Assembly (NCBI GenBank): GCA_033580375.1
Contig: GCA_033580375.1_4527.1
Source of the DNA: a phage
DNA: 64,000 nucleotides
Strand: one strand, 5' to 3'
Shown: piece after piece, positions 26,187-49,858 of the stretch
Position numbering within the stretch: position 1 is the first letter of the stretch
Layout of the letters: every line of letters begins with the position of its first letter
Notes under the pieces: model-generated
What the model saw: the letters and a program-made list of their open reading frames with translations, nothing else
Told to the model about the DNA's origin: nothing
Databases searched by the model: none
Translations under genes and position numbers: made by a program

Positions 26187-26615
26187 TTATTCCTTAAAAT
26201 GTGCTTTCAACATTTGATACAAAGACCATGCCTGGTCGTTATTTTCGATAGTAATCGTCATCACCGGAAATTCGGTCAATTCATCAAGTTCTCCAGAGTC
26301 TTGCTCTTCAGACGCTTGATATGGATTTCCAACTTCATCAAAAAACTCTGCTTCACTAGTAGAGAGCCAGATAAAGTTTTCATCAAGAATATCACCACCA
26401 GTGGCGTATCCAACCATGCCAGTAGATGTCACAATTTTAGTAGGTCGTCCAAGATGGTCAACATCTAATACTTTAAATGGTTCCATGCCAAGACGTCGTG
26501 CATAAATCCCATTATCAGTGTGGTTTTTAATAAACTCTTCTTGGGCACGTTTATCTTTAAATTGGTACCATGAGTTAACGCGGAATTTATTAGCCATTAG
26601 TAAGTTTCCTTCCAA
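26187..26615 (-). CDS. hypothetical protein
   Basis: 142-aa track ORF. Confidence 0.4.
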
Positions 26616-26869
26616 TAAGTTGTACCATTTTCAGTGATTTCACGGAAGATACCATAGATAGGCATTTCATCACCGAGTTTTTCGTAAACGTAAACCACTT
26701 CAGTGTAGCATAAAAATTCAGTCCAGTTTTTCTGTACAACAACTAAATCAGGATTAAATAGAACATCTTCAAACTCATCGATGTTTGAATCAGTAGTTAC
26801 GTTTTTAATGATTTGACGTTTCATAATATTCTCCTCTTGTTTTGATAGGTCTATAGTATCATAGCCCAT
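26597..26869 (-). CDS. hypothetical protein
   Basis: 90-aa track ORF. Confidence 0.4.
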
Positions 26870-26881
26870 AGTTGTTGTACA

Positions 26882-27406
26882 TCATTTTAGCAAAATAAAA
26901 TCAACTTGTTCTGCCAATGAACGTCTGAACATTAATTGACAACTTCCGAGGATGAAATCAGGTGCTTCATAGACCGCGATGTAGTATCCTTTAGCTTTCA
27001 AGAGTTCAACATCTACCTGGTCATCAAACCATGCATAAACCGCGTCAACACTTTCAAATCCAAAATAGAACCCTTGAGCCCAATCTTCACTCAATTCAAA
27101 TGTGTGCTCAATTCTATAGTATCTTAAGATATTTTTTTCAAGGAGTTTATCTTCATTTACTGTAGGACGATTAGGGACATTATAGTTGTCGCCGTGATGG
27201 TAGAAATTACCTGAGAGTATTCCATGTTTATCAAGGAACTCCCATGTTTCTTCAGAGTTGTCGGTGCCCGACCAACCGTATGGCGAACGAGGTTCTTTAT
27301 TCCAAGAGGTTTCCCAAATTCTGACGGCTTTACCGTCTTCAATAGCAATTCCTGGTAATGATTCACGTTGAGTACAAAAACTACGTTCTACGCGGTAAAC
27401 TAACAT
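26882..27406 (-). CDS. hypothetical protein
   Basis: 174-aa track ORF. Confidence 0.45.
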   Translation of the reverse strand: MLVYRVERSFCTQRESLPGIAIEDGKAVRIWETSWNKEPRSPYGWSGTDNSEETWEFLDKHGILSGNFYHHGDNYNVPNRPTVNEDKLLEKNILRYYRIEHTFELSEDWAQGFYFGFESVDAVYAWFDDQVDVELLKAKGYYIAVYEAPDFILGSCQLMFRRSLAEQVDFILLK

Positions 27407-27465
27407 ATTATTCTCCTCTGGTTGATATGGTTATAATATCAAAACCAGAGGAGAAGTAAACAACT

Positions 27466-27885
27466 TTATGCGAAAGCAGCCGGGCTATATTTTTTAATTT
27501 GGAATTCAGGAACTACCATGAACTGACCAGCGAAAACGATGTTATAAAGCTTAACACCATCTTCTACCCAACGGTCGCTAATAAATCCGGCGATTTGCTT
27601 AGTTTTCCATGGCGTTCCATCGGTTGCCGCAGCAATAGTGAATTCGTGGTCTTTTTCAACAGAAACTGATCTGCATAGTCCCCATTTGAACGCTTTTTCT
27701 TCTGGTTCAATGAATTGGCTTGAGACGTAACCAATGTTGCCATCAGCATCACGAACTTTAACTTGATGTGGACTAAAGAGTCCACAACTTACAGAAAGAA
27801 CTTCAACCAACTTCCCAGCAACTTTAGAGCGAGAAGCAACAGGTACATATACGTAATCACCAATAGAGAGATTTGCAATATTCAT
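27466..27885 (-). CDS. hypothetical protein, paralog family member 1
   Basis: 139 aa; shares N-terminal SRSK.AGKLVEV and C-terminal GFISD.WVEDG.KLYNIVF.G.F.VV with the next ORF. Confidence 0.5.
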   Translation of the reverse strand: MNIANLSIGDYVYVPVASRSKVAGKLVEVLSVSCGLFSPHQVKVRDADGNIGYVSSQFIEPEEKAFKWGLCRSVSVEKDHEFTIAAATDGTPWKTKQIAGFISDRWVEDGVKLYNIVFAGQFMVVPEFQIKKYSPAAFA

Positions 27886-27894
27886 AATAATTCC

Positions 27895-28380
27895 TTAAGC
27901 TTTACGAGGAGACACATAACGAGTGATTTCGGATTCTTTAACAACTCTGAAGTCACCTAAGAATACGATATTGTATAACTTTTCACCATCTTCAACCCAT
28001 TGGTCACTAATGAAGCCACACATAGTATCAGTTTTGCTTGGATAACCGTATTCATCGATGAAGTCAAATTCTTTATCAGTCTGGAATTCAACACCTTTAC
28101 ACAAGGCCCATTTGAACTGTGCATTATGCTCTGTGGATTCAACTTTTTCTCTTGAAGCAAAAGCACTACTCACAGGCGTTTCCAAGAACTTTGCACGAAC
28201 ATAAGCAAATTTGGTTTCCTGTGTCCCAAAACTAGGAATAATACGAACTTTTACCTCAGAATCTTCATCTTTAACGCCTTCTTTAAGTTGAATACTTACA
28301 ACTTCGACCAATTTTCCTGCGGCTTTAGAACGAGATTTGTTAGATACGCGAACGATTTCACCAATAATACCAAGATTCAT
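27895..28380 (-). CDS. hypothetical protein, paralog family member 2
   Basis: 161 aa; paralog of 27466..27885. Confidence 0.5.
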   Translation of the reverse strand: MNLGIIGEIVRVSNKSRSKAAGKLVEVVSIQLKEGVKDEDSEVKVRIIPSFGTQETKFAYVRAKFLETPVSSAFASREKVESTEHNAQFKWALCKGVEFQTDKEFDFIDEYGYPSKTDTMCGFISDQWVEDGEKLYNIVFLGDFRVVKESEITRYVSPRKA

Positions 28381-28412
28381 AATTTCTCTCTCTCTTTGTT
28401 TAAATTGAATTC

Positions 28413-28442
28413 ATTATACTCCGTCCATCCTTGGATGTACAA
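28413..28442 (-). promoter_or_regulatory. T4 early-type promoter (TTGTACA-17-TATAAT, minus strand)
   Basis: Minus strand: TTGTACAtccaaggatggacggagTATAAT, about 30 nt upstream of 28380 start. Confidence 0.5.
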
Positions 28443-28444
28443 CA

Positions 28445-28939
28445 TTAATTAAGGATATTAACCACAGCACTACGTGGAACTACACTAAAATCACCTGCAT
28501 GAACAACGTTCAGAAGTTCAACACCGTCTTCAATCCACTGGTCAGTTACCCATCCATTTACTGGATAAGCGAACGGGCGTCGAATTGAAACATATTTACA
28601 CAGCAAATCAGTAGGCTCAATAGGCTTAATCAGAGTACCGTACATACAAGCGATATCCATATCAATACAGACGTCTTTAACGGGTTCTACTTCTTCAATC
28701 AACAGTTCAAAGTCGGTGCTTGGAAGGGCGGTAGTAGAAATTGTATCGTATGAATTTTTAATTTCTAAGAATAACCAAGGGCCTTCAGCTTGTTTGATGA
28801 AGTTAACAATAGTGAAACTATTACCTTGAGTGGCACCTAAAATTTCACAAAACTTTTCGTAAGCTCGCACTGAAGCACTGTACCAGTTGATTTGTTTTTC
28901 GTCTTTCAGGATGTAAGTAGCCGTAGTATTGATATTCAT
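28445..28939 (-). CDS. hypothetical protein, paralog family member 3 (C-terminal module only)
   Basis: 164 aa; C-terminus WVTDQWIEDGVELLNVVHAGDFSVVP matches the family motif. Confidence 0.5.
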   Translation of the reverse strand: MNINTTATYILKDEKQINWYSASVRAYEKFCEILGATQGNSFTIVNFIKQAEGPWLFLEIKNSYDTISTTALPSTDFELLIEEVEPVKDVCIDMDIACMYGTLIKPIEPTDLLCKYVSIRRPFAYPVNGWVTDQWIEDGVELLNVVHAGDFSVVPRSAVVNILN

Positions 28940-28970
28940 AATGTTTTTCCTGTTTGGTTAAGATAGAAAG

Positions 28971-29000
28971 ATTATACTCCAACCATCCTTGGTTGTAAAC
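28971..29000 (-). promoter_or_regulatory. T4 early-type promoter (GTTTACA-18-TATAAT, minus strand)
   Basis: Minus strand: GTTTACAaccaaggatggttggagTATAAT; spacer nearly identical to promoter at 28413-28442. Confidence 0.6.
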
Positions 29001-29005
29001 TGATT

Positions 29006-29683
29006 TTATCGCTGTTTTACACTTAACGGGTCAGGATTCTCAGGGACATCTTCAAGACCAAGCGCATAACGCTGAGCATATTTTAACATCAAAATATCTT
29101 TAGCACAATCATGAATACTATCATGGGCAACGAATCCTTTTAGCGTACCCATCGGTAATGGACACATACTTAATCCTCGTGTCAACGAGTAAGCTTCGAT
29201 TGCCGTACGAATATCGCGTTGAGCCCAGAATTTAACCGGTTCTAATTTATCAGTATCAATATCTGGTTCAAGAACACCTTCATCACGATAGAGGTCACGA
29301 ATCAAATCGACCAAGATCGGGAAGTCAAAGCTCATACCACGGCACCACATTTGTGATTTCCATTGGTCAACTTTATTAGCTCGACAATAATCTAAAAAGA
29401 TTTTAATGCCTTCAAGCGTAGTGACATCGTCTTCAGACGGGGCCAGGTTTTTACGTGCTTCTGCCGATTGTTCTTTCCACCATTTCATAGTGGATTTAGC
29501 GAAAACTCGCTTCCCTTTTTGAGAAGCTAAATTAAATTTAATTCGCTTACCTCGTTGAACAAGTTCTTCGAATGTTTCAACAATTTCAGGGTCGGAATTA
29601 TATGCAATAACCGCAAGGTCAATAACAGCCGCTTTTGATGTATTGCCGAATGTTTCAAAATCTATAATAACATCAGTGCTCAT
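29006..29683 (-). CDS. dexA: Exonuclease A (DnaQ-like 3'-5' exonuclease) DexA
   Basis: 225 aa (T4 DexA 227 aa); N-terminal IIDFETFG exonuclease motif I; position next to dda. Confidence 0.8.
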   Translation of the reverse strand: MSTDVIIDFETFGNTSKAAVIDLAVIAYNSDPEIVETFEELVQRGKRIKFNLASQKGKRVFAKSTMKWWKEQSAEARKNLAPSEDDVTTLEGIKIFLDYCRANKVDQWKSQMWCRGMSFDFPILVDLIRDLYRDEGVLEPDIDTDKLEPVKFWAQRDIRTAIEAYSLTRGLSMCPLPMGTLKGFVAHDSIHDCAKDILMLKYAQRYALGLEDVPENPDPLSVKQR

Positions 29684-29692
29684 AATTTTCTC

Positions 29693-31006
29693 TCAAATAA
29701 AATGGACGTCAAAACGACCACGAGTTGTGCCGACATACAATAGTTGTTTAGCTAATTCTGAATCGGCATAATGGATACACGGTGTATAAACAAAGGCCGT
29801 GTCAACAGACATACCCTGAGCCTTATGGAAGGTTGATACTGGTAGTGCCTTCACCTTAGTGAACATACGTTTAGCATCCCAGAATTCACTCCATGGAGCT
29901 TTACCACCTTTATTCCAGAATTTGTATGTTTCTGCGGTCTTAGCCAAAAACAAATTGAATTTATAAAGCTCTTCTTCGGAAGAAATAACCTTTATATCCT
30001 CGCGGACGTATTCTTCATCATCCCCATATGTTTCTACTGTAAGATTCCAGTATCGTATCATATATTCGCCTGAAACACCACGTGCTTTAACGAATGTAGA
30101 CGTTTCTACAGCATCTCGAATACGAACGAATTGCCCGTTATTGAAAAGCATTTCGGTCATATTTTTGCCATCTAGCTTATATGTCTTAGTAAATGGCTCT
30201 TGTAGAACAATGACCTCGTCTTTAATAAATGGTTTTTCTGTTTCAAGAAGTTTTCGGCGAATAATTGAATTCAACTTGTCAACCGACTTATTTGTGAATG
30301 CCATCATTCGATTTTCGAAAAGGTCTTCAGGAGTTTTAACGACATTAAAATAGTTCATCATATACGATTTAAGGTCTGTATATCCATGAACACCATGTCC
30401 GTCAACTACTTTATCATAAATCCATTTGCCATTACGAATATCAGTCGCAACATCAATAATTGGTGCATTGCTACGTTTAACTTCTGTAAGGTTGCATTGC
30501 ACGAAGTCTTTGTGAGTGAAGAAAGGACTTAGATACGCAGTGGATTCGCCTGGGTCTACAGGTCGAATCTGACATCGGTCACCAATTCCAATTACTGTGC
30601 ACCATTTAGGGATACTAGCTAACATTATTTTAAACAGAGAACGGTCACACATTGATGCTTCATCAAATAACAGTACACGACACAAGGCTAAGTCGGGAAC
30701 CTTTTTCTGTTCAAACAATACGTTTTCTTCGTATGTGGTTGGGTTGATTTTAAGAATGCTATGAATGGTTGATGCTTCTTGTCCGGCAAGTTTGCTTAGA
30801 ACCTTTTTAGCAGCGTGTGTTGGTGCTGCTAAAATAATACCTGATTCTCCAGAAGAAATAAGGGCTTCAACGATGAATCTAGTAAGGGTTGTTTTACCTG
30901 TACCAGCAGGCCCATTAATAGTTACATGATGTTTCTTTTCTTTAATAGCGTTCATAACAACGTTGAAGGCGTTTTTCTGGCCGTCAGTCAAATCATCAAA
31001 TGTCAT
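29693..31006 (-). CDS. dda: SF1B DNA helicase Dda
   Basis: 437 aa (T4 Dda 439 aa); MTFDDLT.GQKNAF, Walker A GPAGTGKTT, helicase motifs. Confidence 0.9.
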   Translation of the reverse strand: MTFDDLTDGQKNAFNVVMNAIKEKKHHVTINGPAGTGKTTLTRFIVEALISSGESGIILAAPTHAAKKVLSKLAGQEASTIHSILKINPTTYEENVLFEQKKVPDLALCRVLLFDEASMCDRSLFKIMLASIPKWCTVIGIGDRCQIRPVDPGESTAYLSPFFTHKDFVQCNLTEVKRSNAPIIDVATDIRNGKWIYDKVVDGHGVHGYTDLKSYMMNYFNVVKTPEDLFENRMMAFTNKSVDKLNSIIRRKLLETEKPFIKDEVIVLQEPFTKTYKLDGKNMTEMLFNNGQFVRIRDAVETSTFVKARGVSGEYMIRYWNLTVETYGDDEEYVREDIKVISSEEELYKFNLFLAKTAETYKFWNKGGKAPWSEFWDAKRMFTKVKALPVSTFHKAQGMSVDTAFVYTPCIHYADSELAKQLLYVGTTRGRFDVHFI

Positions 31007-49818: not shown

Positions 49819-49858
49819 ATTTCTCTCATTTAATTAGTTTACCGTCCTTGGCATTATA

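Follow-up and report, generated by a model that had tools for sequence, protein, structure and literature searches.

The best-described relatives of this locus are the motB genes of T4 and its kin. Only one member of their family has been characterised, T4 MotB, which acts in host takeover (PMC6070864, PMC7827196). The protein is toxic and DNA-binding, it was copurified with H-NS, and its effect on burst size is 2-fold (PMC6070864); it also changes the footprint of H-NS, and a part of the H-NS regulon is derepressed by it (PMC7827196). A common C-terminal domain combined with differing N-terminal domains was published, together with a duplication proposal, in 2021, and RB69 was shown to carry two motB copies (PMC7827196). 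The N-terminal domain of MotB.1 was reported to be LSm-like in 2025, and motB.1 is dispensable in T4, where its deletion gives no phenotype (PMC12152347). For the promoters, the PeSL concept and the T-even early consensus TTTACW-N17-TAYWAT provide the reference (PMC4122927).

The window analyzed here, a stretch of 64,000 nucleotides of phage DNA, comes from a T-even coliphage with 98% DNA identity to phiE142/ESh27, whose records annotate the same genes in the motB region. The original prediction had placed in it a tandem array of three paralogous early genes, and we indeed found three minus-strand ORFs of 139, 161 and 164 aa at 27466–27885, 27895–28380 and 28445–28939, respectively (hereafter ORF139, ORF161 and ORF164). 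They are the already described second motB, motB and motB.1 of T4-like coliphages, and because of this the paralogy is real yet ordinary. The segment motB.1–motB–motB-like sits in the dispensable early region extending from gene 39 to dda, and the position of motB, within the dexA–cef interval and directly downstream of motB.1, is the same in the gene orders of the window, phiE142, T4 and RB51. As it stands, the finding adds little: The paralogy, the domain make-up and the duplication hypothesis have been published, and the genes are present in public phage records. The joint explanation that we consider probable combines a known motB segment, an old duplication, a dispersed promoter cassette and a function resembling that of T4 MotB.

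The C-terminal module proposed to unite the proteins is present in all three, as GFISDRWVEDGVKLYNIVFAGQFMVV, GFISDQWVEDGEKLYNIVFLGDFRVV and GWVTDQWIEDGVELLNVVHAGDFSVV; the core of this barrel of ~50 residues reads G(F/W)(I/V)(S/T)D(Q/R)W(V/I)EDG..L.N.V..G....V. The N-terminal segment SRSK.AGKLVEV, predicted for two of them, was found in the 139-aa and 161-aa proteins. The Pfam family PF17613 (motB, modifier of transcription) scored 179.8 bits for ORF161, 76.6 for ORF139 and 35.7 for ORF164, in the last case over the C-terminal part only, all exceeding the gathering cutoff of 25 bits. In BLASTP with composition adjustment, ORF139 and ORF161 aligned over their full length with 42% identity (E 1e-29), and ORF164 matched ORF161 and ORF139 with E 2e-10 and 5e-11, respectively, values that argue against similarity restricted to a short low-complexity stretch. 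The homology of ORF164 to the other two is confined to the ~50-residue C-terminal barrel, its N-terminal domain being unrelated, and the C-terminal domains of motB.1 and motB, 38% identical in amino acids, match in DNA over just 23 nt. The AF2 models comprise a pair of beta domains plus a disordered linker, indicating that all three are small two-barrel proteins in which a flexible linker joins the C-terminal beta-barrel of the family to a small N-terminal barrel. In MotB and ORF139 the latter is of the KOW/SH3-like type, in MotB.1 of the LSm-like type. PDB sequence searches with MotB and MotB.1 returned no solved relative.

The family is very small: Its C-terminal-domain profile retrieved 28 clusters among 1.84 billion representatives, and all members known to date come from phage or phage-like sequences. 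These counts come from an exhaustive search of representatives; a word-indexed search with the same profile returned a biased subset and was set aside. Most representatives have a KOW-like N-terminal domain joined to either of the C-terminal-domain types, and the disordered linkers of many members hold a conserved peptide motif. The family would have originated by old duplication and exchange of N-terminal domains, with no recent copying of gene plus promoter.

ORF164 is the motB.1 orthologue (PHROG 2333, E 6e-82; Pfam PF17613), with 45.7% identity to T4 MotB.1 across 99% of its length. Like T4 MotB.1 (P39415; "Category 2" in PMC7827196; LSm-like family in PMC12152347), it has an LSm-like N-terminal barrel (approximately residues 1–85), a fold class taken from PMC12152347, and a short C-terminal barrel of the MotB family (approximately 110–164) starting with PTDLLCK. 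This short domain, PTDLLCK...GWVTDQWIEDGVELLNVVHAG..SVVPRSAV, is near identical in the two proteins. The AF2 model has a mean pLDDT of 79, reaching ~90 in the C-terminal domain, and predicts strands at 8–11, 42–49, 55–61, 67–73 and 80–82 plus helices in the N-terminal domain. The linker (86–106) is predicted to be disordered and bears the motif DMDIACMYGTLIKP; it forms an insert of ~21 residues that T4 MotB.1 lacks. The genes differ also in their control, ORF164 having its own promoter whereas motB.1 of T4 and RB51 follows motB.2 after ~10 nt and is promoterless. According to a published structure comparison, the T4 LSm-like early proteins GoF and Frd.2 have an N-terminal fold in common with MotB.1, but they lack the MotB-type C-terminal domain. 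The window encodes goF and another phrog_622 member 2–3 kb farther downstream within this early region; pairwise BLASTP found no similarity between GoF and the 141-aa phrog_622 protein, nor between the latter and the N-terminal domain of MotB.1.

ORF161 is motB proper, the positional and sequence orthologue of T4 MotB (PF17613; PMC6070864, PMC7827196), an early gene located after motB.1 toward cef. It is 57% identical to T4 MotB, spans positions 5–157 of the 162 in the PF17613 profile and has the expected parts in order: a KOW/SH3-like N-terminal barrel (approximately residues 6–65) with SRSKAAGKLVEV, a disordered linker (70–89) and a long MotB-type C-terminal barrel (approximately 89–156) with FKWxL...WVEDG. 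This arrangement of KOW-like N-terminal domain, linker and C-terminal barrel is common to T4 MotB, ORF161 and ORF139.

ORF139, the second motB copy (PHROG 1671, E 5e-50), is collinear with MotB at its 42% identity and shows the two-domain architecture of motB with a short linker; at 139 aa, it is without most of the linker of the T4 MotB type and is only 37–42% identical to any MotB. Its closest described counterpart is RB51ORF010c, annotated as "MotB-like transcriptional regulator" and representing the second copy of the RB51/RB68/RB14 type, with 83% identity between ORF139 and RB51ORF010. Both genes are located straight after motB with equally tight spacing, and nothing substantive differs except the gene downstream, motB.2-like here and ORF009 in RB51. 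Orthologues with at least 80% identity were found in 207 of 766 phage records, nearly all others having only a MotB-level match below 60%, and the extra copy thus appears to be kept in about a quarter of the MotB-encoding phages. In a rough, unbootstrapped NJ tree, ORF139 branches outside the clade of MotB orthologues. The sequences hence suggest that the motB/ORF139 duplication is neither recent nor purely local. Three natural motB/ORF139 chimeras (P0027, P0029 and P0031) were found in short Logan contigs only, and none was encoded in complete phage genomes, where the best match was 80%. Such chimeras would mean unequal crossing-over of tandem copies, but we did not rely on them because they may be assembly chimeras.

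The next gene downstream, the motB.2-like ORF174 (minus strand, 26882–27406), matches T4 MotB.2 with 35% identity (BLASTP E 1e-16; PHROG 1106). It falls outside the MotB family, with no match to PF17613. In T4 and RB51, motB.2 is placed between dexA and motB.1, whereas the gene here is downstream of ORF139. It is preceded, at 27407–27465 on the minus strand, by a promoter-like site TTTACT-16-TATTAT and a strong hairpin in which the -10 element is enclosed and the Shine–Dalgarno sequence GAGGAG is paired (RNA fold dG -23.9 kcal/mol, z -5.0); T4 has an equivalent promoter/hairpin element upstream of motB.2.

A sigma-70 scan of positions 26500–29800 gave as its best matches two minus-strand promoter-like sites, one before motB.1 (28971–28999; TTTACA-accaaggatggttggag-TATAAT, 17-nt spacer, 11/12 consensus) and one before motB (28413–28441; TGTACA-tccaaggatggacggag-TATAAT, 17-nt spacer, 10/12 consensus). 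By their consensus matches, both are putative T4-type early promoters, a type defined by a sigma-70-like -35 element (G)TTTAC(A/T), a 17-nt spacer and a -10 TATAAT at 20–40 nt before the start. Although each of the three genes had been credited with its own promoter, only two have one, and the same scan revealed no promoter-like site before ORF139. With no promoter and only 9 nt between the motB stop codon and its start, ORF139 is therefore most likely cotranscribed with motB. No minus-strand terminator-like site was found near the two promoters in the scanned region. Judged from the sequence, host sigma-70 RNA polymerase would initiate right after infection at two strong early promoters, one predicted to drive motB.1 and the other a motB–ORF139 bicistron.

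The near-identical spacers described earlier are real: They agree at 14 of 17 positions, compared with a maximum of 10 of 17 among 136 pairs drawn from 17 further promoter-like sites of the window. The likeness of the two promoters ends at the core, and within the spacer of the motB.1 promoter we found a perfect inverted repeat, CAACCA-AGGA-TGGTTG. A search of the window with the core CCAAGGATGG recovered only the two known sites and a chance-level site with one mismatch at 49842, after a -10-like element. In phiE142-type genomes the core is present at four sites, and an identical core precedes unrelated genes of 316 and 319 aa at another phiE142 locus, as well as genes that differ in their N-terminal sequences in additional phage contigs of IMG/VR. 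A tblastn search with the 316-, 319- and 331-aa proteins gave no match to the window, and the other copies of the core lie outside it.

By homology to T4 MotB, the proteins likely serve to take over the host early in infection by binding DNA and antagonizing H-NS, and it is this part of the original prediction, an accessory early family of host-takeover type, that stands together with the paralogy. Judged by homology, MotB would coat DNA, displace or remodel H-NS/StpA and raise burst size modestly, and MotB.1 and ORF139, with this C-terminal barrel in common but N-terminal barrels that are different or modified, would act on targets that are related yet distinct. The proteins differ from T4 MotB in charge, ORF161 being acidic (pI 5.6, net -2) and T4 MotB basic (pI 9.23, net +6). 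The pI is 6.7 for ORF139 and 4.4 for MotB.1, most family representatives are acidic, and neither ORF161 nor ORF139 has the basic charge of T4 MotB. As that basicity is the published rationale for DNA binding and the proteins here are acidic or neutral, the functional transfer is weak; the basic charge of T4 MotB is atypical for the family, and caution is therefore needed in transferring T4 results to other T-even phages.

The same acidic or neutral charge speaks against nonspecific coating of DNA and would suit an alternative in which the proteins are modulators directed at RNA or RNA polymerase, their KOW, LSm-like and Tudor-like barrels binding RNA or a surface of RNA polymerase or of the ribosome. 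Binding to RNA, or to the machinery of transcription and translation, is common among KOW and LSm folds, and the original name, "modifier of transcription," agrees with such a role. However, a T4 motB amber mutant barely altered the T4 transcriptome (PMC6070864) and MotB.1 gave little effect in an RNA reporter assay (PMC12152347), and we regard this alternative as improbable. Another reading that we hold to be unlikely joins the proteins and their promoters. The C-terminal barrel, Tudor/SH3-like as opposed to the published OB fold, would be a constant targeting module for one host factor (such as H-NS/StpA or RNA polymerase), while different activities would come from the N-terminal barrels, which are swappable, and from the linker peptide, D-x-D-[IV]-x-x-M-Y-x-T-x-[IV]-x-P. 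As parts of the same reading, the paralogues and the two unrelated ~320-aa genes of phiE142-type phages would form an early set coregulated through the palindromic-spacer cassette, and the palindrome CAACCA-AGGA-TGGTTG, kept by compensatory change, could be an operator for a dimeric regulator, beyond a recombination scar.

It is more doubtful that the genes form an anti-defence arsenal with a varying number of paralogues, each copy neutralizing a different host immunity protein. Their location in a dispensable, hyperplastic early region, the variable copy number (the extra copy in 207 of 766 phage records), the exchange of N-terminal domains on a constant C-terminal domain and the short motif of the disordered linker, which resembles a docking peptide, would all be compatible with it. 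Against it, experimental or sequence links to any defence system are absent, and the activity already demonstrated for T4 MotB is a different one. A search of ORF139, ORF161, ORF164 and ORF174 with the PADLOC-DB models, a library of defence and not of anti-defence proteins, gave no match.

Very unlikely, finally, is the model by which the original prediction explained the look-alike promoters, a recent local tandem duplication of gene and early promoter followed by divergence, with the promoters as relics. Adjacency, a shared strand and true paralogy of the genes speak for it, as do the promoter cores of motB.1 and motB, whose identity at 25 of 29 positions (86%) is far above background; but this similarity far exceeds that of the coding sequences, the likeness of motB.1 and motB being restricted to the C-terminal domain, the third of the protein farthest from the promoter, and the promoter-adjacent N-terminal domains are nonhomologous, LSm-like in one and KOW-like in the other. 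A relic of duplication is thus contradicted both by the confinement of the likeness to the core and by the nonhomology of the N-terminal regions. The pair genuinely duplicated over its full length, motB and ORF139, lacks a second promoter. The flanks of the motB promoter are orthologous to those of T4 and RB51, but the core and spacer differ in these phages, ORF161 having a core unlike that of T4 motB, and motB.1 of T4 and RB51 has no promoter at all. These other spacers and the recurrence of the same core before unrelated genes at other loci also argue against a relic, and the duplication of gene plus promoter is largely refuted.

The pattern instead fits, as far as sequence comparisons go, a dispersed promoter cassette of PeSL-like kind that is not a by-product of gene duplication. 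Such a cassette would have replaced the ancestral promoter cores here, along with relocation of the motB.2 cassette, and would also drive the unrelated genes in phiE142-like genomes; the replacement of cores would resemble the promoter-mediated shuffling reported for PeSL elements. In one respect the likeness fails: The stem-loop of PeSL elements is missing, the structure around the two promoters being unremarkable (z -0.6 and +1.1) and no PeSL-type stem-loop being found upstream of ORF139. Unlike in PeSL, the sole inverted repeat, of 6+4+6 nt, lies inside the spacer, and recombination is deduced from comparisons. On the other hand, as in PeSL elements (PMC2839356, PMC4122927), a near-identical early promoter recurs at several loci of the hyperplastic region in association with rearrangement. 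The promoters here fit TTTACW-N17-TAYWAT and adjoin the motB.2 relocation, with rearrangement breakpoints at the -35 region. The look-alike promoters illustrate the spread and replacement of a cassette instead of its coduplication with a gene.

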